A stretch of DNA of 64,000 bases from Candidatus Limnocylindrales bacterium (lineage in GTDB: Bacteria; Moduliflexota; Moduliflexia; Moduliflexales; JAUQPW01), in assembly GCA_035559535.1 (NCBI GenBank), contig DATMBG010000002.1, positions 1 to 64,000 of the forward strand. The letters run 5' to 3'. Within the stretch, counting starts at the first letter, position 1; each line of letters begins with the position of its first letter. The notes under the pieces were generated by a model. It did no database searches. It saw nothing but the letters and a program-made list of their open reading frames with translations, and was not told the origin of the DNA. Of the stretch, positions 1-55,863 are shown piece after piece. The translations under genes were made by a program, and so were the position numbers.

Positions 1-264
1 AATGGGGCTGATTTCTCGATAGCCTAACCTCTGCAGCTTCCCTTTTAAATCCCTTTGGTAAATATTGTCTCCAGGTTGAAGAACCTCCAGATCTGAATAA
101 ATACGGGAAGGTAAATCCCACCGCTTTTTATTGAATTCCTCTGTCAGGAGTTCATCTAAATACCATTCGTACCAGAAAATTAAGAGAACCTCGGAAATAG
201 CGATAACACCTAGGATACAGGACCCTACGAATAGGGGTCTACGCTGGTGAAAGAAGTAACCCAT
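1..264 (-). CDS. mrcB: Penicillin-binding protein 1B-like, N-terminal part (runs off window start)
   Basis: Not in the ORF track. Manual translation from ATG 264 (upstream GAGG): MGYFF-TM helix-EEFNKKRWDLPSRIYSDLEVLQPG...LQRLGYRE, which resembles the PBP1B TM/UB2H start (W.LP..VY....L.PG...L..LGYR). Confidence 0.7.
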   Translation of the reverse strand, partial: MGYFFHQRRPLFVGSCILGVIAISEVLLIFWYEWYLDELLTEEFNKKRWDLPSRIYSDLEVLQPGDNIYQRDLKGKLQRLGYREISPI

Positions 265-625
265 TCCTCAACCTTACCCTTTAGTTTTTGGTTCTCAGGA
301 GGGATAAATTTTTTCAACCTGAAAGGTAACAAACCTCTACTGAGGGATTGGTTTAGGGAGTAGAGGATTCTTTATTTTTACCTCCCTGAACCTGAGAGCT
401 TTACCCCTCGGCCGGACCCGCTGCAGGGGGACCCTGCCAGATCATCCCATCCTTTAAGGACCCTCTTCGTGGTAAATTAGTATTTCTTTGTACCTAATTT
501 ACAATCTTTGCACTTAAAATTCCAGAATATGTAGAAGATACAGTTAAAAATTTCAACCCCTGCAATCAGGTAAAGAGAAATGAAGTGACGGATACATGGG
601 ATGAGGAAACTGGAGGAACATCAAC

Positions 626-44600: not shown

Positions 44601-45041
44601 TCAGGAAACTAAATATCGGGCACGGATCATAACTTTTCGGGTGGAATCTTTATCTTCAATCTGTACCACAACCCTGATTTTCTTCTCAACCTTAAGAAAT
44701 CGAGCTCCCTGTACCGTACCTGTGGACAGAATCTCTACCTGCCCGGCTGAATCTAAAGGCTTTAAGATGACAGAGAAAGTTCCATTTCCCAGTAAAGTTT
44801 CGGTTTCTCCTTGATAATTTGATTCAGATTTTGACAGTTCGTGCAAGGCCTTTTCAACTCCCGCCTCAGCTAAATTAAAGGCTACATCATTGAGGTAGCT
44901 TCGAGTGGTAAGGAAATATTCGGAACTTCCACGATTTAAGGAAACACCTATCAGGATAAACAGCGAGGAAAAAACCGCCGTAATTAAAATCAAGGCTACA
45001 CCCCGTTCACTTTTTAAAACCCTCCACCCTTGCATGGTCAT
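44601..45041 (-). CDS. PilX/GspK-like minor pilin
   Basis: ERG|VALIL hydrophobic N-terminus without E5; AFNLAEAGVEKA. Confidence 0.75.
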   Translation of the reverse strand: MTMQGWRVLKSERGVALILITAVFSSLFILIGVSLNRGSSEYFLTTRSYLNDVAFNLAEAGVEKALHELSKSESNYQGETETLLGNGTFSVILKPLDSAGQVEILSTGTVQGARFLKVEKKIRVVVQIEDKDSTRKVMIRARYLVS

Positions 45042-45625
45042 TGAACTCCGGCGCGATAAGCTGAATCGATATGTAAACTTCGTGTGATCCCATACAGTTT
45101 CTTTTCCAAATCTAACTCGATTTTTACAACTGTTTGGGAAGGATTTAAAGTAAACTTTAAACTTCTCACATCCTGAGAAATTAAATCGATACCACTCTGA
45201 GAAGGAGAAGCTATCCGACGAACTTTTCCCAGAATCCCAAGGTTTTTCTCATCAGGTGGATCATAGAGATAAAGGATAGAGGCTTCTTTTCCCGGATCTC
45301 CTTCGGGTGGGCCGGGTAAGTTTAAAACCAGGACCTCTTCGGAGTTTTGAAATCCACCGCGCTGGATCGAAATTTTATAGGCACTTCGAATATCTTTACC
45401 TAGTTGGCTTAAAAACATTTGGGCCTCATGTAAAAGATCCAGATCCAGGTCGGCCCGATTAATGTTTTCATATGTGTTGGAAAAGACCGTCAGAGCCACG
45501 ATAATAAAGATCGATAAAATAAGTATGGCAACACTGACTTCAGGTAACGTAAATCCTTTTGGAGACCGATCGGATAACCCTCTGATTTTTGAATAAAAGA
45601 GTTCTATAAAATCCCTAAACCTCAT
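45038..45625 (-). CDS. PilW/GspJ-like prepilin
   Basis: KG|FTLPEV class III signal; L.KDIRSA. Confidence 0.8.
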   Translation of the reverse strand: MRFRDFIELFYSKIRGLSDRSPKGFTLPEVSVAILILSIFIIVALTVFSNTYENINRADLDLDLLHEAQMFLSQLGKDIRSAYKISIQRGGFQNSEEVLVLNLPGPPEGDPGKEASILYLYDPPDEKNLGILGKVRRIASPSQSGIDLISQDVRSLKFTLNPSQTVVKIELDLEKKLYGITRSLHIDSAYRAGVQ

Positions 45626-45990
45626 CGATGGGCCCTCAGGGTCGAAAGGGATACACTTTGCATCGTACCTGCCGACCCACGCCAGGAGATAGTCACCACA
45701 ATCTTTTTCAACTCCGAGGTATTAAAATCACTGACTTCGACCTCTCCCTGACCCTCCGGGAGATCTGGAATAGAAGACAGAGAATAACTCTTTAGCTGAT
45801 TAAAGGGAATATCTTTAGATGTTTCCATGATCGTATTGGCTTTTGCATGGGCCTTGGTGAGATTTTTAGTATCCTGAATGAGGCGTTGTTCTTGAGAAAT
45901 GGAGACGGTAAAGATAACCACCAGAATACCAAGAACGGCTAAGGCAACAAGGGATTCTAAGAGAATATAGCCCTGAATCGATTTTCGCAT
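45622..45990 (-). CDS. PilV/GspI-like prepilin
   Basis: QG|YILLESLVAL class III signal; LKKIVVTISW; start ATG 45990. Confidence 0.8.
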   Translation of the reverse strand: MRKSIQGYILLESLVALAVLGILVVIFTVSISQEQRLIQDTKNLTKAHAKANTIMETSKDIPFNQLKSYSLSSIPDLPEGQGEVEVSDFNTSELKKIVVTISWRGSAGTMQSVSLSTLRAHR

Positions 45991-46146
45991 GTTAAATCCC
46001 CCTGTAAAAGTCAAAAAGGTCGGTAAATCATCTCTCTAAATCCTGCGCTATGGTTAACCTATTCTTCCTCCTTGTCAAGGAAAAAAGATTTCTTTCTTAC
46101 ACAAATTTGAGTCCCGAAACTCAGGAATCAGATTCTCAAAGCCTCT

Positions 46147-46576: not shown

Positions 46577-47716
46577 ATGAAACATACGTGGGTTCTTTGT
46601 ATTTTTCTTGCTCTGCTTTTCTTAGGAGGGGAAGTTTCAGCGAAAAATTTTGAACAGATTGCTTTAGAACAAAGACCCGGCATCGTGGCGGTTATTTCCC
46701 TAAACCAGGAAACTGCTTCCTTAGGAACCGGATTTGTGGTCAACCCCAGGGGGTATGTTTTGACCAATTATCACGTGATCCAACAAGGAGACCTGATTGG
46801 AGTTAAATTCTATAATGGAGAGGTCTATGACGCTCGACCCGTCGCTTTTGATGAAGATAAAGACATAGCGGTCTTAAAAATTGATGGGGTCGGCTTTCCT
46901 ACGGTACTTCTTGGAAATTCCAGCGAATTGAAAAAAGGCGAAGCGGTCATTGCCATAGGAAATCCCCTGGGTTGGGAAGGCATTGTTACTCCGGGTCGGA
47001 TTAAAAGGATCTGCTACGTCCGATCCTCCACGGTATTGTGTGGACGTAAACCCAAGGTCTATGATTACCAGCTCATTGAAACTTCAACGCCCCTCTTACC
47101 CGGTAATAGTGGTGGACCTCTGATTAATAGCCGTGGCGAGATTATCGGAATTAATACCCTCCGTTCTAATTATCCCAGTGTAAATTTTGCAGTTCCCATT
47201 AATTATGCCAAAAGCCTGCTAAGCAAGTTGGAAAGAGAAATAGAGGGATTAGAAAAACCCATGGCTAAATCGTATCGCCGAAATGACCTGGCATCTACTA
47301 AACCGAAAGGGAGTGCGGCCATCCAAAGCATCTGGCTGGAACCGAACATCCTTTTAGATGGGGAATGGGGCCTACGCTTCCACGTAAATTTTCTCATCCG
47401 GGGATATGTGGGAGAAGAATGCTCGGTAAAGATCTTTTTCTATTACACAGATGGGCGTAAAGTCCTTAACCAAACCGAAAACTACACAGCTCCAGATAGA
47501 CAGGCCTTTGTTCAAAAGATCTTTATTCCAGAGTCTGCCGAGACCTCCCTCCAGAGTTTATCATTATTTATCCCTTACTACGCTTTACCCCCGGATCTAC
47601 CCCTTCAAGGGGAAATTGTCATTCTGGATCCTATGGGAAAAAAGCTCACCAGTAAGATGTCCAGTCCTTTTTATCTTTCAACCTCTTACTTACAAGGATG
47701 GATACCCCCTCAGTAA
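46577..47716 (+). CDS. Exported trypsin-like (S1C) serine protease, no PDZ, with unknown C-terminal domain
   Basis: Signal peptide, GTGF, TNYHV, DIAVL, PGNSGGPL. Confidence 0.88.
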   Translation: MKHTWVLCIFLALLFLGGEVSAKNFEQIALEQRPGIVAVISLNQETASLGTGFVVNPRGYVLTNYHVIQQGDLIGVKFYNGEVYDARPVAFDEDKDIAVLKIDGVGFPTVLLGNSSELKKGEAVIAIGNPLGWEGIVTPGRIKRICYVRSSTVLCGRKPKVYDYQLIETSTPLLPGNSGGPLINSRGEIIGINTLRSNYPSVNFAVPINYAKSLLSKLEREIEGLEKPMAKSYRRNDLASTKPKGSAAIQSIWLEPNILLDGEWGLRFHVNFLIRGYVGEECSVKIFFYYTDGRKVLNQTENYTAPDRQAFVQKIFIPESAETSLQSLSLFIPYYALPPDLPLQGEIVILDPMGKKLTSKMSSPFYLSTSYLQGWIPPQ

Positions 47717-47894: not shown

Positions 47895-48428
47895 TTAAAG
47901 CCGTTCACTACAATACTCATAGAATTTACAACTCTGGCAGCGGCTTCGGCTTGAATGATTCCTTCGGGCCGGGGTTTTTCGTAAAAGAATGGCCCGCATT
48001 TCTTCCAGTACGGTACCCAGAGCAGGAATTAAAGTCGGATCGTACGAAACTTCAGTTTGCCCATCCCTGAATCGCAAAATACCTTGATAAGGCCGGAGTC
48101 CAAATTCTCTTTCAACAAGTAGAAAGTAAGCGGCCAGTTGCATTCGATGGGAAAGGTACAGCTCTCCAGGTTTCGTTCCTCGCTTATCTTCAATAACAAG
48201 AGCCTGGGAACGGTTCCGATAAACCCAATCGGGTTTACCGCAGAGAATAACCCCCTTAATGAAAGCCTTAAGTAACCTCCCTTCGCCTTGAGCATCGGTA
48301 TAAATCAGCTTCCAGCCTTTAGGAATACTTAATTCCCTGGAAAGTCTTCTTTTTTTCAAAAGGAGATAGGGAAGAAAGAGGAAAAAATTGAAGAAAATAA
48401 ACAGACCTAACCCTAGATTGAGATTCAT
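47895..48428 (-). CDS. Cas4-like RecB/PD-(D/E)XK nuclease, C-terminal part, with N-terminal TM anchor
   Basis: TM helix then KKRR; GKPD, IEDK, QLAAY, CQSCKFYEYC; lacks the first Fe-S Cys. Confidence 0.82.
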   Translation of the reverse strand: MNLNLGLGLFIFFNFFLFLPYLLLKKRRLSRELSIPKGWKLIYTDAQGEGRLLKAFIKGVILCGKPDWVYRNRSQALVIEDKRGTKPGELYLSHRMQLAAYFLLVEREFGLRPYQGILRFRDGQTEVSYDPTLIPALGTVLEEMRAILLRKTPARRNHSSRSRCQSCKFYEYCSERL

Positions 48429-48856
48429 AGCCCCCTCCAGAGTAGAAAGGTCAGAAGGATAAATCCAACCCCTATAGAAATCCAGATCAGGTTTTCCAGA
48501 TAGAAGAGGAATCTTGTTTTCCAGGAAATGCGGCTGTGATGTTGAAGTCCTTTGTTAAGAAGCTCATAGGCTTCCAGAAGGTCGAGTAAATATCGAAGCT
48601 CAACCTTTTCTTCTGGAGAAAGAAACTTTTTAGCGCGCAGTTCGTTGATCTTTCTCAGAGCCTCCGCCTGGGAGAGTATCTGACCCTGGCGTTCCCGGTA
48701 CCAGGCCAAAGGGCAGAAACTGTACTGTCCTACTTCAGATACCGTAATAAAAACAGGATTTTTAAGAAGGGATTCCATATCGGAGAATGAACCATCCGCT
48801 TCGTTCTGCGGAATCCGGGTTCCAGATAAAATCGAAGGAAGCAGGCTATACTCCAA
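48425..48856 (-). CDS. Cas4-like N-terminal part with C-terminal TM anchor
   Basis: ITVSEVGQYSFCPLAWY, GLQHH, C-terminal hydrophobic helix; ATGA overlap with partner; alternative start ATG 48778. Confidence 0.72.
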   Translation of the reverse strand: MEYSLLPSILSGTRIPQNEADGSFSDMESLLKNPVFITVSEVGQYSFCPLAWYRERQGQILSQAEALRKINELRAKKFLSPEEKVELRYLLDLLEAYELLNKGLQHHSRISWKTRFLFYLENLIWISIGVGFILLTFLLWRGL

Positions 48857-48922: not shown

Positions 48923-49915
48923 TTATATTCCGGTAGTTTTATAGAATTTATATCGGTCCTCGCTTCGGACTGTAATTTCGTAGGTGACCCCATTACGTAA
49001 GATGGTTAACTCTAGCTTGTCACCTACGGAAGTAGACCATAACTGCTGGAGAAAATCGGCATCACTGGAAATCTCTATACCGTTCAGATGGGTAATAATA
49101 TCCCCCCGTTGAATTCCGGCTTTATCGCCAGGACCTCCAGCCACAACCCCTGCCACCGCCATTCCCTCGGCAACTAAAACATGGTAAACCCCCAGCCAGG
49201 AACGGGAAGGCCGACTGAGAACCCTGCCGAATTTTAGAAGCTCATCTTTAATGCCATGAAAGATATCAATGGGAATAGCCAGATTCATGGCTTGAGGCTC
49301 ACTGAGTTGAAGAGAAATAATCCCAATACACTCTCCTTGAAAATTAAGGAGAGGACTACCTCCAAACGCAGGATTTGGCGGAACCACCAGAATAGCTTCA
49401 TCCAACATGTACTCCCAATATCCGACAAAGGGTTGAATAGCAAAAATACGTCCATTGGTTATGACCCGGGTGTTTTCCTCCAGACTACCCATGGTAACAG
49501 TTAAGTCTCCGACGTTGGCTTCCTCGGAAGAGCCTAAAGAAATAGGCCATTGACCTACCGGTTCTAGAGCCCGAAGAACTCCAAATCCACTTTCAAGATC
49601 AACTCCTAAGAGCTTTGCCGGTACTTGCTGACCATCATCCAGAGTAATTTGAGCCGTATCTGCCTCCAAAATGAGATATCCTACCGTTAAAACATGAATC
49701 TCATCGATCAGAACCCCGGTTCCCTGACGAAAAGTCCCTAGAACCCGACTGGAAGGACTTGTCTCTGAAATACTGGCCTGCACACGTACTACAGAGGGTC
49801 GAACCTTATCTACAATCTGTAGGATCTGATCCTTAAGACCTACATGACCATTATGCTCATAAGAAAGTTGATAAACAATTTGCGCCATAGTTTCCTTAAC
49901 TTCACCTACTTCCAT
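48923..49915 (-). CDS. S1C protease-like protein with PDZ; catalytic residues apparently substituted
   Basis: GTGVLI, LTVGYL, PAFGGSPL, C-terminal PDZ (WLGV..AGIQRGDII). Confidence 0.8.
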   Translation of the reverse strand: MEVGEVKETMAQIVYQLSYEHNGHVGLKDQILQIVDKVRPSVVRVQASISETSPSSRVLGTFRQGTGVLIDEIHVLTVGYLILEADTAQITLDDGQQVPAKLLGVDLESGFGVLRALEPVGQWPISLGSSEEANVGDLTVTMGSLEENTRVITNGRIFAIQPFVGYWEYMLDEAILVVPPNPAFGGSPLLNFQGECIGIISLQLSEPQAMNLAIPIDIFHGIKDELLKFGRVLSRPSRSWLGVYHVLVAEGMAVAGVVAGGPGDKAGIQRGDIITHLNGIEISSDADFLQQLWSTSVGDKLELTILRNGVTYEITVRSEDRYKFYKTTGI

Positions 49916-51335: not shown

Positions 51336-51977
51336 CTATTTAATCCGCTCAAATTCTCCGGTGACCGAGTTGAAAATCACGAGATTGTAATTGGTTTGAA
51401 CGGTTGCCGTCACATCCGATACGGCTACATCGGTTACTTTTTCACCGGCCAGGAGATTCTGAGAACTCCAACGCCCCAGGGATGCAGAAAAGCCCAGAAT
51501 ACGACGGAGGGTAGCCACAAGCCCTACACTATTCCCAATCCTGGAATTAATAAGTCCTTCTCCAGCCATAAAGGAGGTCGTTGCCCAATTCAGGGCAGCC
51601 GGACTCAGGGCATGAGCCCCCAAATTGGTAATCACCAAAACTATCTGATCTCCTGCCTCAACCCCCCTGAGCGCACCCTCACCGGGTTTCAAATTTCGAA
51701 TAACCCAAATCCGGGTCCGCGCACTAAATCCCAAGATCCGACGATTCGTCAAGGCAAATCCCATGAGCCCTTCTGCTCCCGATTGAAGCACCCTCTCCCC
51801 CGGCATCAAGCGCTTAATAATGGCTCCCCCCTGACCGGAACTGATCGCAACAACTTTCTCCTCAAATACGGTTACCTGAACCTGATCGGGAATCTCCTGG
51901 GCATAGAGTCGGGAGGATAAACTAAGTAAACTGATCAGACTGAAAGTTAAAAGTTGTAAAAAGAAGGTCGAAACCAT
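51336..51977 (-). CDS. Exported beta-repeat protein, unknown function
   Basis: Signal peptide; four ~40-aa repeats with L.PGE/L.AGE and RRILGFSA. Confidence 0.7.
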   Translation of the reverse strand: MVSTFFLQLLTFSLISLLSLSSRLYAQEIPDQVQVTVFEEKVVAISSGQGGAIIKRLMPGERVLQSGAEGLMGFALTNRRILGFSARTRIWVIRNLKPGEGALRGVEAGDQIVLVITNLGAHALSPAALNWATTSFMAGEGLINSRIGNSVGLVATLRRILGFSASLGRWSSQNLLAGEKVTDVAVSDVTATVQTNYNLVIFNSVTGEFERIK

Positions 51978-52182
51978 GAAATTCAGACCTGTGGGTCCCT
52001 AAAGTTTAAATTCCTTGACATAAAACCTGTTTATACAACATAATACCCGGAGGGTAAAGAAGGCTACCTAAAACTTTAAGCTTCAACTATCCCATAAGCC
52101 CTAGGCCTATACCATAGACTACCTCTCCCCAGGGCCATTTAAATCACTTACCATTAAGGCATTTTTGATAACCTTTAACATC

Positions 52183-55100
52183 ATGGACTTAAAAAAATCT
52201 AAACGCTTTCTGGTCGGAGTAATCTTCTTCGTATTTTTGACCCTACTCATCGGATACGATATCTGGACCGATGTTTTAAATTATCACTTTCGTCTAAGCC
52301 CTAAAAAGGGGATTTCGAACACCATCGAACTGTATCGAGGAAAGGTAAACAGTTGGAACCCTTTTGGATTAAAGAAATATCAGCTAGAAACCGGATATCT
52401 ACGAAACCAGATCGAAGAGGATAAGCTTTTTGCCGAAAAACCCTTGACAAATTTTGAGACCTGGAATCTGGAACTCCTGGAATATTTCCCTCTTCTAAAA
52501 AGGATCTCTGCTTACCGGGAAATCGGAGAAATAGGAAAGGCTCTGAAATTAGCAGATACGGCCATTTCCAAAGAGAATAGGGCTCAAACCCAAGAGATCC
52601 TCCATCTTCTGGGTAATTTTCATTCAGGTAAAGTAATCTCTGTTTTGAAAGCCCATTTAGAACCCTCCGAAGATTCAAGTATCCGAAGAGATATCATTCC
52701 AATCCTGGGTTCCATGAAAATTCCCGAAGCCATGGAGGTTTTAATGACCTTATTGAAGGATTCAGACAAATACGTAAAACTGGATGCAGCCCAAGAACTT
52801 GTGCCAGTGGGAAGGACGGAAGTGATTGAACCCCTACTCATCTTACTCAAGGATTCGGATAAACAGGTCCAACTCAGGGCTGCAAAAATGCTCGTACAGT
52901 TAGGACGCGTGGAGGTAATAGAACCCTTGGTGACTTTACTGAAAGATCCCAATTATCATATTCGGACCGATGCCGCCAGGTTATTACTCCAATCCAGACG
53001 GGTCGAGATGATCGAACCTCTGGTAGCCTTACTGAAAGATCCGAATTCAGAAGTACGGCGTAATGTAACGGAAATACTGCTGGGCCTGGGTCATATTGAG
53101 ATGGTCGAGCCGCTGATAGCCTTGTTAAAGGATTCCGATACTTCTCTGCAGCTTAACGTGGCCGAGATGCTGGTAGAGTTGAAGCGGACCGAAGCGGTCG
53201 GGCCTTTGATAGCCTTGTTGAAAGATCCGGATCCGGAAGTACAAACCCGGGCGGCCTTTGCGTTGGCCCGGTTGAGTCAGGTCGAAGCGATAGAACCTTT
53301 GATAACTTTACTGAGACATCCGATTCCTTTCATGCGGTTTCGGGCCGCAGAAGCCCTTGTACAATTGAACCGTGCTGAAGTCGTTGAACCCCTGGTAGCC
53401 CTCCTCCAGGACCCAGATCCGGAGATACGAGCACGTGCAGCATCGGTACTGGGACGATTGGGACGGACCGAGGCAGTAGGTCCCTTATTATCCTTATTAA
53501 AGGATGAAGATCATTTTGTTCGACGCACGGCGACATCGGCCCTTGTAAAGTTGGGTCGTGCTGAGGCGATGGAACCTTTATTGACCATGGTTAAGGATAA
53601 AGATCCCCTCGTACGACGTACGGTGACTTCTCTATTAGGAGAACTAGGGCAGGCCGAAGCAGTAGAACCTTTGATCACCCTCTTAAAGGATCCAGATTCC
53701 GATGTACGAAACCGCGCCATATCCATGTTAGAAGAGCTGGATCGTACCGAAGCAGCCAAACCGCTGGTAGTCCTGTTAAAAGATCCGAATACCTTTGTAC
53801 GAAGCCATGCAGCAGAGGCCCTAATCCAGTTAGGTCAGGTCGAGATTTTGGAGCCTCTGATCACCTTATTGAAGGATGAGGATTCGGATGTGCGTAACCG
53901 TGTCGCTTCAATACTTATAGAATCAGGTCAGGTTGAAGCGGTAGAACCTTTGAAGGTTTTGTTGAAAGATCCAGATTCCGGGGTGCGAAGCCGTGCAGCG
54001 GCTGTACTGGCGGAGTTAGGTCGTATGGAGGCCGTAGAACCGCTCCTGGCTCTGCTAAAGGACCCGGACCCGGAAGTACGAAATCGTGCGGTATTTGCGC
54101 TGGTAGAACTGGGCCGCACGGAAGCTGTTGAACCCCTGATAGCTCTGCTGAGGGGTCCGGATAAATACGTACAAAACCGGGCCATAGCTGCCCTGGTGAA
54201 ATTGGGACGGGTTGAAGCTGTGGAACCACTCCTGATTTTACTAAAGGATCGGGATCCGGTGGTACGAAGGGGTGCAGCGCTTGCATTGGGAGAGTTCAAT
54301 CATGCCGAGGCAATAGAACCTTTAATGGCCTTATTAGAAGATCAAGATCCGGAGATACGAAATCGAGCGGCCCTGCTGTTGGGTAAATTGAGGTATCCAG
54401 GAGCTCTGGAATCCTTGATAAACTTATTAAAAGATCCGGATAAATATGTACAAATGGGTGCGGCCTCTGCATTGGGAGAATTGGGACGAGAGGAGGCTGT
54501 AGAACCTTTAGAGGTCTTACTGAAGGATCCCGATAAATATCTGCGATTGAGTGCGACCTCTGCACTGATAAAACTGAGATATCCAGAACCTGTTGAACAA
54601 TTGGGAGATCTTTTAAAGGATAAAGAACCCCTGGTGCGATATAGTACGGTCCAGGCGTTTGGAGAATCGGGTCTTACACAGGCTATAGAACCCCTGGCAG
54701 TTCTACTTAACGATCCCGATCCCTCCGTACGAAGTCGTACGGCATTGACCTTGGGTAAGTTATCTGCCGGGGAAAAGTTGGGGGCTCTTCAAGCTCTCTT
54801 CCAAGATGCCAGGGAAAAATATGAAGTTAAACTGGCTACAGCAATGGCTTTATGGGAATTAAACCAGAGGGAAGGCTTAGAATTTCTAATCGAGAAATCC
54901 AGAAGTCCAAGAGCCATCCAGCGAAGAAAAGTTGCAGAGATTTTGGGAGAAGTTTCCTCAGAACCAGGAACTTCTTTGCTGATATCCCTGCTCTCCGATA
55001 AGATACGAAGGGTTAGAATTCAAGCCATAGAATCTCTGGGACGTTCAAAGGGAAAAGCCTCTCTTTCCCATTTACATAGAATTCTCGAGGAATCTGATCC

Positions 55101-55863
55101 GAAAATTCGAGAGGTTACCGTAAAGGCCCTGACAGAAATAGCTTCGCCTGAAAGTGTTGAACCCTTGAAAAAAATAGCCCTGGATCCCCAAGAACGAATT
55201 CCTACCCGCCTATCTGCCATCACGGCCCTGGGAAATATTAAAACTGAACAGGCGGTACAGACTCTTTTAGAAATCCTCCAACAATCAGAAGAGATCTATC
55301 TCTTCAGCACCCTCCAGGCCTTAGGTAAAACGCACTCTCGTCAGGCAATCCCCTTTTTACAATCCCTCTTGAAACAACAGGAAGCACGCAGGCAGATCTG
55401 GCGAAAAGTTCGGGATGAGGATACAAAATTTTATACCGAACAACAATTTGAAGATTGGAAAAAACGATTGGAAGAGGTAAAACCCGAAAAACCGATAGAA
55501 TTTGAACTGGCCTATGTCCTCAGCCAACTGGATCCTGAAATCGAGGGAATTAAACTCCTCTCCCACGATCTGGCCTCTGTAAGAGAAGGGGCTTGGATGG
55601 GATTGTCCGGAGCTGGTACAGTTCAATTAATTCGGCAACTGGATCAGGAGCGACAGAGACGAAAGGGGGGTTCTCATCTTCATTTCCAAGAAGCCAGCTA
55701 TCGGGCTATAGACCATGCCCTTATTACTCTTCAGATGCAGGGAGGAAAAAAAGAACTAGAAGAGTTGAAAAAATTCCTGCTACAGGTTCAGGACGAAGAG
55801 GGAATTTCTACCCGAGTAGAATGGACGATCAAACGATGGAAAAATCTAAAGAATAATTCCTGA
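52183..55863 (+). CDS. Large membrane-anchored HEAT-repeat protein
   Basis: N-terminal TM; ~22 regular 31-aa repeats EPL..LLKD.D..VR..AA..L..LG; ATG 52183 preferred over TTG 52165. Confidence 0.88.
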   Translation: MDLKKSKRFLVGVIFFVFLTLLIGYDIWTDVLNYHFRLSPKKGISNTIELYRGKVNSWNPFGLKKYQLETGYLRNQIEEDKLFAEKPLTNFETWNLELLEYFPLLKRISAYREIGEIGKALKLADTAISKENRAQTQEILHLLGNFHSGKVISVLKAHLEPSEDSSIRRDIIPILGSMKIPEAMEVLMTLLKDSDKYVKLDAAQELVPVGRTEVIEPLLILLKDSDKQVQLRAAKMLVQLGRVEVIEPLVTLLKDPNYHIRTDAARLLLQSRRVEMIEPLVALLKDPNSEVRRNVTEILLGLGHIEMVEPLIALLKDSDTSLQLNVAEMLVELKRTEAVGPLIALLKDPDPEVQTRAAFALARLSQVEAIEPLITLLRHPIPFMRFRAAEALVQLNRAEVVEPLVALLQDPDPEIRARAASVLGRLGRTEAVGPLLSLLKDEDHFVRRTATSALVKLGRAEAMEPLLTMVKDKDPLVRRTVTSLLGELGQAEAVEPLITLLKDPDSDVRNRAISMLEELDRTEAAKPLVVLLKDPNTFVRSHAAEALIQLGQVEILEPLITLLKDEDSDVRNRVASILIESGQVEAVEPLKVLLKDPDSGVRSRAAAVLAELGRMEAVEPLLALLKDPDPEVRNRAVFALVELGRTEAVEPLIALLRGPDKYVQNRAIAALVKLGRVEAVEPLLILLKDRDPVVRRGAALALGEFNHAEAIEPLMALLEDQDPEIRNRAALLLGKLRYPGALESLINLLKDPDKYVQMGAASALGELGREEAVEPLEVLLKDPDKYLRLSATSALIKLRYPEPVEQLGDLLKDKEPLVRYSTVQAFGESGLTQAIEPLAVLLNDPDPSVRSRTALTLGKLSAGEKLGALQALFQDAREKYEVKLATAMALWELNQREGLEFLIEKSRSPRAIQRRKVAEILGEVSSEPGTSLLISLLSDKIRRVRIQAIESLGRSKGKASLSHLHRILEESDPKIREVTVKALTEIASPESVEPLKKIALDPQERIPTRLSAITALGNIKTEQAVQTLLEILQQSEEIYLFSTLQALGKTHSRQAIPFLQSLLKQQEARRQIWRKVRDEDTKFYTEQQFEDWKKRLEEVKPEKPIEFELAYVLSQLDPEIEGIKLLSHDLASVREGAWMGLSGAGTVQLIRQLDQERQRRKGGSHLHFQEASYRAIDHALITLQMQGGKKELEELKKFLLQVQDEEGISTRVEWTIKRWKNLKNNS

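Follow-up and report, generated by a model that had tools for sequence, protein, structure and literature searches.

A predicted split, membrane-tethered Cas4-family nuclease pair in a Candidatus Limnocylindrales genome and its relatives

The Cas4 nucleases of clustered regularly interspaced short palindromic repeat (CRISPR) systems (PF01930/TIGR00372), for which structures exist from a type I-C system (8d3l), a Cas4-Cas1 fusion (7mi4) and SSO0001 (4ic1), consist of one soluble polypeptide of ~170–220 residues and are encoded next to, or fused to, cas1 and cas2. Here we describe a pair of genes, referred to as A and B, that very likely divides such a protein over two membrane-anchored chains. 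The pair lies on the minus strand of a 64,000-nucleotide stretch of DNA (hereafter the window; contig DATMBG010000002.1 of assembly GCA_035559535.1, positions 1 to 64,000) from Candidatus Limnocylindrales bacterium. It has the D, ExK and QxxxY motifs, the pattern of one plus three cysteines and, as predicted, the fold in common with CRISPR Cas4, but its chains measure 117 and 177 residues and carry one predicted membrane helix each. These helices sit at the split point, where canonical Cas4 is without insertion, and unlike CRISPR Cas4 the pair neither adjoins cas1 or cas2 nor follows Cas1 in its occurrence.

Cas4 homologues away from CRISPR loci have been described as solo-Cas4 (Hudaiberdiev et al. 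2017, PMC5704561), a label that denotes location only and not a functional family. Like the pair, they are found outside CRISPR loci and mobile elements and look vertically inherited. According to that paper, the evolution of solo-cas4 is mainly vertical and many Chloroflexi have a monophyletic solo-Cas4 group, which probably includes the B-type proteins treated here. The solo-Cas4 of M. mazei is reported to be a soluble oligomer of ~318 kDa (PMC12501428), and the solo-Cas4 proteins described are soluble single chains, unlike the pair. The main text of PMC5704561 contains the words "transmembrane" and "split" zero times and "membrane" once, in a gene legend, and a search of the full-text literature, with supplementary files such as the trees of PMC5704561 outside its scope, brought up no account of a Cas4 that is split or anchored in the membrane. 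At least one source already annotates B-type proteins as "Cas4", A-type proteins are "hypothetical" and belong to no Pfam family, and the pair belongs to a large family that is apparently undescribed.

Two further groups of nucleases invite comparison. In the staple domains of AddB, AdnAB, Dna2 and Exo5 three cysteines close together and a fourth far from them hold an iron-sulfur cluster, which connects the N-terminal with the C-terminal part of a RecB-like nuclease domain, as is proposed here; these are, however, domains of large soluble helicase-nuclease machines or soluble monomers, whereas the pair comes without a helicase and its cluster would bridge two anchored chains. The membrane-bound competence nucleases EndA and NucA have different folds and an extracellular active site and offer a functional analogy only, the site of the pair being predicted to be cytoplasmic. 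A non-CRISPR role of a Cas4-family protein is represented by the Argonaute-associated ACE1 (9iac, 9iab), from which the pair differs in that no Argonaute gene was found in the annotated region of the window (36–60 kb); the ACE1 entry titles carry no membrane label.

Architecture and family assignment of the pair

Two minus-strand open reading frames (ORFs) occupy 48425–48856 (143 residues when read from a TTG) and 47895–48428 (177 residues). The plus strand reads "tcat" at 48425–48428, corresponding to an ATGA on the coding strand in which the stop of A overlaps the start of B. The features of the pair are given below in window coordinates, which are used throughout, with residue numbers following the 117-residue A and the 177-residue B.

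48425–48778, minus strand: gene A, N-terminal subunit, 117 residues, stop included; the alternative TTG start at 48856 would give 143 residues
48695–48751, minus strand: A residues 10–28 (FITVSEVGQYSFCPLAWYR), N-terminal strand and helix with Cys22, predicted first iron-sulfur ligand
48536–48550, minus strand: A residues 77–81 (GLQHH), G..H motif, likely equivalent to the His of Cas4 motif I that binds metal
48437–48493, minus strand: A residues 96–114, predicted C-terminal membrane helix, 3 residues left after it; Kyte-Doolittle mean 2.06 over 19 residues
48431–48438, minus strand: GGAGGGGG, Shine-Dalgarno-like run within the 3' end of A, shortly before the ATG of B and putatively serving B, as read from the sequence
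48425–48428, minus strand: ATGA overlap of A stop and B start; junction identical in the same-genus genome
47895–48428, minus strand: gene B, C-terminal subunit, 177 residues, stop included; matches to PF01930 and TIGR00372
48345–48413, minus strand: B residues 6–28, predicted N-terminal membrane helix, followed by KKRR; Kyte-Doolittle mean 2.14
48228–48239, minus strand: B residues 64–67 (GKPD), PD motif, equal to RecB motif II; G64, P66 and D67 invariant
48183–48191, minus strand: B residues 80–82 (EDK), ExK motif, equal to RecB motif III; K82 invariant, E80 conserved in at least 90 %
48126–48140, minus strand: B residues 97–101 (QLAAY), QxxxY motif; Q97 invariant, Y101 conserved in at least 90 %
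47910–47939, minus strand: B residues 164–173 (CQSCKFYEYC), CxxCx5C, three predicted C-terminal iron-sulfur ligands; C164, C167 and C173 invariant

Protein A starts with an N-terminal FITVSEVGQYSFCPLAWY, which is followed by a helical insert, KGLQHH and the hydrophobic helix that ends 3 residues before the stop, while B opens with its hydrophobic helix from residue 6 and continues through KKRR, GKPD, IEDK and QLAAY to CQSCKFYEYC. A first-pass annotation made from the letters of the stretch had named the ATGA overlap, the signature ITVSEVGQYSFCP, GLQHH and a helix in A, and a helix, KKRR, GKPD, IEDK, QLAAY and CxxCx5C in B, and every one of these was found again, the last as C164-x2-C167-x5-C173. 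Translation of A probably begins at the ATG at 48778 instead of the TTG at 48856, because, among the five A-type proteins retrieved, of which one is the window's own 143-residue ORF (P0008), the other four measure 117–128 residues and three of them start at or near MESLLKNPVF. Within residues 33–72 of A (~48563–48682), the A clade of the window has a helical insert of ~32 residues that separates the Cys motif from the G..H motif and is missing from the 46 A proteins of other lineages in the alignment.

Comparison of B with Pfam Cas_Cas4 (PF01930) gave 44.1 bits (E 3e-11, cut-off 22.7), restricted to profile positions 54–159 of 160, and B covers only the C-terminal two thirds of the Cas4 profiles. 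The A family matches the N-terminus, so that the split architecture read from the letters held up: scanned singly, 29 of its 51 members match PF01930 and 17 match PDDEXK_1 at E≤1 (best 5e-4), and no unrelated family was matched by more than two of the 51. C22, W26, G77 and H81 are invariant in these 51 sequences and A13, S14 and E15 are conserved in at least 90 %; in 80 sequences of the B family, D45, G64, P66, D67, K82, Q97, C164, C167 and C173 are invariant and E80, Y101 and H158 reach at least 90 %. The RecB-type motifs II (D67) and III (E80, K82) and the QxxxY motif (Q97, Y101) are all present in B, and the four cysteines of the Cas4 4Fe-4S pattern are present but spread over two chains, C22 in A and C164, C167 and C173 in B. 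Judged by these alignments, the named motif residues lie far beyond chance, since they are invariant across the families, and A would supply exactly what B needs for a full Cas4, namely the first Cys and the G..H motif, since the invariant residues of both families complement each other. According to PMC13621843, His62 of SSO0001 is a metal ligand, and H81 of A may be its counterpart.

In sequence searches against solved structures, B found only 4ic1 (E 0.42). The Cys22 stretch of A falls in register with the N-terminus of the Cas4 chain 8d3l_I, and G77/H81 align with its G..H, at E 1.3 only. A search of the ESM Atlas with A returned nameless clusters, mostly labelled Chloroflexota, and one PDDEXK_1 cluster with a score of 0.90 (14 % of members) that is no more than a lead. 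The sequence signal was too weak, and structure was therefore used.

Conservation and co-inheritance of A and B

A genome of the same genus contains both genes with an identical junction, and the ratios of nonsynonymous to synonymous substitution rates (dN/dS) against it are 0.177 for A and 0.117 for B; both genes are under purifying selection. Contigs of two other studies span the junction, one identical (X2 record 3) and one with 26 substitutions (X3 record 6), and no inserted or deleted letters were reported in any of the four runs compared. In a further data set (X6), two contigs end near 48441–48450 and, under the 31-letter rule, do not extend across the junction.

Scanning one genome per species yielded 549 relatives of B. 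Locus counts given below refer to the best 80 of these 549 (L005–L084), whose contigs are mostly labelled Anaerolineae or Chloroflexota, with the window's genome and its near relative (L001–L004) left out. An A-like region on the same strand, upstream of or fused to B, was found with an iterated profile in 59 of the 80 loci, as a separate ORF in 58 and fused in one (L046), whereas 21 loci are without it, two of these being interrupted by a contig end. The split is conserved in these loci. In 53 of the 58 loci with separate ORFs, B starts within 30 nucleotides of the A stop, with a 4-nucleotide overlap in 16 and a 1-nucleotide overlap in 11, the B start being taken as the one nearest to the A stop, which biases these values towards small gaps. 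Where B has a different upstream gene, A was found elsewhere in the genome in five of five genomes (E 1e-19 to 5e-28); these five genomes hold six copies of A, of which only one adjoins a second B.

Co-occurrence was assessed in 151 genomes drawn evenly from one class, with fetched contigs mostly labelled Anaerolineae. B was counted when full-length at E≤1e-48, canonical Cas4 scoring weaker on the B profile (E at least 1e-27) and over positions ~40–171 only, and one 29-residue A match (E 3e-4, internal stop) was scored as absent. Both genes were present in 109 genomes and neither in 39, while A alone was found in two and B alone in one; in the B-only genome and in one of the two A-only genomes the gene lies at a contig end. 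The corresponding Fisher p of 1.5e-32 is overstated, the genomes being kin. Within the class the pair is near single-copy and syntenic, and it is a member of a large family and not a peculiarity of one genome.

Two short ORFs that overlap by four nucleotides and jointly resemble one protein could also have arisen by decay of a cas4 gene or by an assembly frameshift in a single gene, but the low dN/dS of both parts (0.18 and 0.12), the recurrence of the split in 58 of 80 loci and 109 of 151 genomes, the membrane helix that each part has of its own at the end of A and the start of B, and the two contigs from other studies that cross the junction without insertions or deletions leave this explanation a negligible probability. 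The pair is not a broken gene.

Predicted fold, topology and single-chain relatives

The Cas4 fold was tested on a natural relative, the 266-residue single chain P0082, and not on the window proteins. P0082 matches a PADLOC Cas4 model with residues 11–259 over model positions 4–159 of 161, and its fold was predicted from an 87-row alignment with a predicted local distance difference test (pLDDT) score of 93.1 and a predicted template modelling (pTM) score of 0.89. The best Foldseek matches of this model are the Cas4 chains 8d3l_I (1.7e-7), 8d3q_J and 8d3l_J, followed by Dna2, 7mi4, SSO0001, ACE1, MGME1, AdnAB, Exo5 and AddB. In VIA-align, 7mi4_A gave a Z of 20.4 with a root-mean-square deviation of 2.9 over 185 residues (model 6..265, chain 5..213), 8d3l_I a Z of 19.2 and SSO0001 (4ic1_D) a Z of 13.5, and the top four matches are all Cas4 chains with Z 16.0–20.4. 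Values for the staple nucleases were 14.3 (AdnA), 14.1 (Exo5) and 11.7 (Dna2), and those for ACE1 were 11.7 and 11.1 (9iac, 9iab). In the model, both ends of the P0082 chain build one Cas4 domain, because the alignment to 7mi4_A spans residues 6 to 265, and residues ~45–121 are predicted to protrude as an insertion of two long helices (H39–84 and H88–119), with one continuous helix holding both the G..H motif and the first membrane segment.

For the window proteins themselves, prediction of the A+B complex gave interface scores (ipSAE) of 0.78, 0.78 and 0.77, while none of three controls scored above 0.00. Of 80 solved complexes 58 come up to this mark, as do 2 of 110 mismatched pairs, a calibration that is only rough, the alignments being self-supplied. 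The runs have at least 75 % of contacts in common, with partner pLDDT of at least 71. In the complex model, B residues 4–35 contact A residues 87–116 helix on helix, and B residues 56–66, 91–104 and 137–175 contact A residues 5–30, so that the first strand of A lies against B residues 60–63 and the C22 region of A against the three-Cys region of B. The predicted interface has A residues 7–28, including C22, touching B residues 163–164, 167–169 and 172–173, which is consistent with the heterodimer and shared cysteine cluster proposed in the first-pass annotation. A and B of the window are accordingly scored as a predicted heterodimer, although the complex score shows likeness and is no proof of binding, because the two chains are halves of a fold with solved structures.

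The topology was read from lysine plus arginine counts. In 80 B proteins, whose helix has a median of only 3 residues in front of it, these counts average 0.04 before the helix and 3.23 over the next 12 residues. In 51 A proteins, the 12 residues that lead up to the helix average 2.76, and the tail behind it, with a median length of 1 residue, averages 0.53. By the positive-inside rule, both soluble parts are therefore predicted to be cytoplasmic, at the inner face of the membrane as had been supposed, with almost nothing exposed outside.

Taken together, A and B would be two subunits of one PD-(D/E)xK, 4Fe-4S nuclease tethered to the cytoplasmic face of the membrane. A would contribute the N-terminal strand and helix, the cluster cysteine C22 and the G..H motif with H81 as probable metal ligand, and would cross the membrane once from inside to outside; B would cross from outside to inside and provide D67, E80, K82, Q97 and Y101 together with the three remaining cysteines. 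The two membrane helices would pair as a hairpin formed in trans, and the two soluble parts would close into a single Cas4 domain, so that cluster and active site would be shared between the chains and neither subunit should work alone. Iron-sulfur binding, nuclease activity and membrane topology are here inferred from sequence and models.

The same geometry occurs uncut in nature, as natural single chains carry a two-helix hairpin exactly at the split point. An exhaustive profile search of 1.84 billion representative proteins gave 2109 matches at E≤1e-3, of which 875 passed E≤1e-10 and 103 passed E≤1e-30, the looser counts including canonical Cas4. Among the best 150 of the 2109 representative clusters, 122 are short B-type proteins of up to 215 residues, 111 of these with exactly one hydrophobic helix in a crude scan; 20 combine A, membrane helices and B in one chain of 243–596 residues, with 2 to ~8 or more membrane helices between the halves by inspection and crude scan; and the remaining 8 are longer proteins without the A part that mostly resemble truncated multi-helix forms. 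P0044, P0094, P0120, P0125, P0136 and P0148, of 541–596 residues, have ~8 or more membrane helices between the Cas4 halves, and these helices resemble repeated hairpin modules, each with a conserved W/LWL..S.FFY-like segment.

In a FastTree phylogeny of 165 catalytic parts (136 columns, 87 of 162 forks unresolved), all 155 membrane-type rows stand apart from 10 canonical Cas4 with a support of 97, and the B of the window belongs to a small long-branched clade of split forms. At least five changes between split and single-chain forms are needed on this tree, of which well-supported branches force only one. The idea that a membrane hairpin had been inserted into a Cas4 and the gene then split in its loop is thus matched in its geometry by the single chains, while the poorly resolved tree, whose supported branches force only that one change, does not order insertion, split and fusion.

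Genome context and possible role

In agreement with the first description of the locus, no cas1, cas2 or array was found in the annotated 36–60 kb of the window. The same genome does encode, on another contig (G000 contig C27, L091:558–10977), a complete type I-D set of cas3', cas10d/csc3, csc2, csc1, cas6, cas4, cas1 and cas2, with the contig ending 1.2 kb past cas2. Downstream of cas2, at L091:11122–11850, we observe five copies of a 36-nucleotide GC-rich palindromic repeat (GTAGGGGCGCAAGGCCTTGCGCCC core) at spacings of 105, 150, 253 and 185 nucleotides and with 64–92 % identity, unlike a regular CRISPR array. A Cas4 homologue in a genome with a type I-D system might be a trans-acting helper of its adaptation module, but the locus has a full-length cas4 of its own (142 bits to TIGR00372), and among the 151 genomes the pair occurs together with Cas1 in 74, without a Cas1 match in 35, and Cas1 occurs without the pair in 28 and neither in 14, giving an odds ratio near 1. 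We consider such a helper function very improbable; the pair is independent of Cas1 and is not a CRISPR adaptation factor.

Neighbours of the pair in the window include two trypsin-like proteases, a radical-SAM enzyme, a HEAT-repeat protein and a lipoate ligase, and this context is housekeeping in character. One of the proteases, on the same strand, is the following.

48923–49915, minus strand: trypsin-like protease with PDZ domain (Trypsin_2, PDZ_2), ending 145 nucleotides before the ATG of A and possibly co-transcribed with it

This protease has no obvious signal peptide and is not a conserved neighbour in the loci of other lineages. The only same-strand promoter-like site lies upstream of it, in a scan whose promoter and terminator counts equal chance (4 vs 4.1 and 4 vs 3.4). 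A second trypsin-like serine protease gene flanks the pair on its downstream side; its product, encoded convergently at 46577–47716 (plus strand), bears a weak likeness to the protease domains of the PADLOC models RT-Protease (E 2e-16) and LmuA (1e-7). At 52165–55863 (plus strand) a protein of 1232 residues has a hydrophobic segment at its N-terminus, after which it is made up nearly throughout of HEAT/PBS-lyase repeats (23 HEAT_2 stretches), and at 51336–51977 (minus strand) a protein of 213 residues has a signal-like N-terminus and an internal repeated RRILGFSA motif and matches nothing in Pfam or PADLOC.

A tethered nuclease could degrade foreign DNA, such as that of phages or plasmids, at the point where it comes out on the inner side of the membrane, and defence or uptake had been the role first suggested for the pair. 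Cas4-family nucleases do recur in defence, B and the single-chain forms match only the Cas4 and DruK nuclease-domain models in PADLOC (A matches none), and the nuclease is predicted to lie just under the membrane. According to PMC10653904, a Cas4-like nuclease lowered transfer or maintenance of RSF1010 replicons in S. elongatus. The annotated region of the window, however, is without defence-island context, the pair is no member of a described non-CRISPR system, and, unlike typical defence genes, it is near single-copy and syntenic in the class, where 109 of 151 genomes have it; it also offers nothing to distinguish self from non-self. None of 31 pattern matches in viral contigs was confirmed as a relative, a search with one degenerate pattern by which absence is not shown. 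The pair is not obviously a mobile defence gene, and we regard entry-point defence as an unlikely role; this part of the first suggestion is not supported.

Uptake or scavenging, in which the pair would process DNA from a competence-type channel or form the cytoplasmic end of a scavenging route, was considered in view of three genes 1.9 kb away. At 44601–46014 (minus strand) three small consecutive genes carry prepilin-type N-terminal methylation (N_methyl) motifs and have the appearance of a minor-pilin/pseudopilin set; one of them gives a weak, sub-cut-off ComGE match (E 2e-4), and no pilus ATPase was found in the annotated stretch of the window. A convergent protease gene, however, separates these pseudopilins from the pair, they are not conserved neighbours elsewhere, and no linkage to ComEC or ComEA was seen in any annotated locus. 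Further points in favour come from other loci: SSB is nearby in 34 of the 80, and in L046 and 12 of 80 metagenome loci a PLD-like lamin-tail protein is the direct neighbour of the single-chain form, a link limited to one group of loci. On balance this function appears improbable.

Conserved neighbours were found within lineages. In 46 of the 80 loci (L006–L084, e.g. L026:2992–3705) a translin-like gene of 215–260 residues abuts or overlaps the start of A, which suggests a three-gene operon of translin-like gene, A and B in the mostly Anaerolineae class; this gene is absent from the window, and its Pfam Translin match is weak (26.9 bits for one representative at a cut-off of 25.9, 22 bits for another). 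DUF3467 is nearby in 37 of the 80 loci, which, like those with SSB, are mostly labelled Anaerolineae. In L073, on a contig labelled Heliobacteriaceae, endonuclease V abuts B, and in L068 and L069, labelled Blastocatellia, a UDG-family gene is nearby, in one case together with DinB and AlkZ-like genes. The neighbours in the 80 single-chain metagenome loci are GlmS (27), a TPD-motif protein (21) and the PLD-like lamin-tail protein (12). The TPD sequence-motif protein (PF14811) lies directly upstream of the single-chain form, e.g. at L149:4136–4936, and the PLD-like protein (two PLDc_2 domains, lamin-tail; e.g. L094:3068–5152 and L046:539–3214) lies directly upstream of the single-chain Cas4 with an overlap of a few bases and could be an extracellular nuclease or phospholipase.

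A resident, non-defence role as a DNA-processing or repair nuclease, acting on DNA ends or single strands near the membrane, is our best guess for the pair because of its near single-copy, syntenic presence in most genomes of the class, which fits the mainly vertical evolution stated for solo-cas4 in PMC5704561; we hold it tentatively, at a little under even odds. The translin-like, SSB, endonuclease V, UDG and AlkZ-like neighbours also count in its favour, as do the unconfirmed pattern matches in viral contigs and the PADLOC result limited to Cas4 and DruK nuclease domains. The split, membrane-anchored Cas4-type architecture, as stated at the outset, we consider very likely, and to the whole reading, a split membrane-tethered Cas4-family pair with a resident role, we assign a probability of about 0.6.

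Several observations weigh against this reading. B remains below the 65-bit cut-off of NCBIfam cas4 (TIGR00372) with 60.2 bits over positions 66–179 of 180, A of the window matches the same profile without significance (E 0.14, positions 1–37 of 180) and no Pfam family at threshold, and the A-family profile (A2) reaches the Cas4 chain 8d3l_I in the PDB only weakly, at the E of 1.3 given above; the Cas4 assignment of A rests on the family profiles and the single-chain relatives. G77–H81 of A lie outside the confidently placed interface residues, and the clade of the window has its 32-residue insert before this motif. M. mazei solo-Cas4 mutants in the cluster cysteines are reported to have lost the cluster and kept nuclease activity (PMC12501428), so a shared cluster may be dispensable for catalysis. 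As to the role, the synteny within the class may be mere inheritance, no neighbour is conserved across phyla, the neighbours differing between them, and only 2 of the 41 genomes searched in the wider lineage of the window proved to carry the pair, a patchy, more accessory-like distribution that also speaks for defence.

The missing significant match of the window's A and the activity of the cluster-less M. mazei mutants would equally suit a B that is a self-sufficient truncated nuclease, with A an unrelated small membrane protein that merely adjoins it. The matches of 29 of 51 A-family members to PF01930, the invariant C, G and H that are just those B needs, the co-occurrence counts (109, 2, 1 and 39), the single chains with A before B, and the complex score of 0.78 against 0.00 argue otherwise, and we give this alternative very little weight.

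A more far-reaching proposal is that the membrane part, a hairpin here and four to eight or more helices in the mostly archaeal-type single chains, is more than an anchor. It could keep the Cas4 exonuclease in a rigid position a few nanometres below a channel for DNA, as part of a membrane machine for DNA processing that had so far escaped recognition, where DNA crossing the membrane would be degraded or trimmed as entry-point immunity or scavenging, and the shared cluster would couple subunit assembly to activity. We put this forward as speculation that is probably not correct.

For the split, tethered Cas4-type pair, the reading we prefer, the consequences reach beyond this genome. The known iron-sulfur staple joins parts of one chain, whereas here it would join two chains, each fixed in the membrane, and the arrangement is common, other bacteria and archaea having many related single-chain forms. 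The small protein A, widespread and so far "hypothetical", would receive a name and be matched with its partner, B-type proteins annotated as truncated "Cas4" would be half-enzymes, and the pair would provide a natural test case for an iron-sulfur cluster as an assembly device. It also raises the question for which DNA transaction a cell would keep a nuclease on the cytoplasmic side of its membrane.

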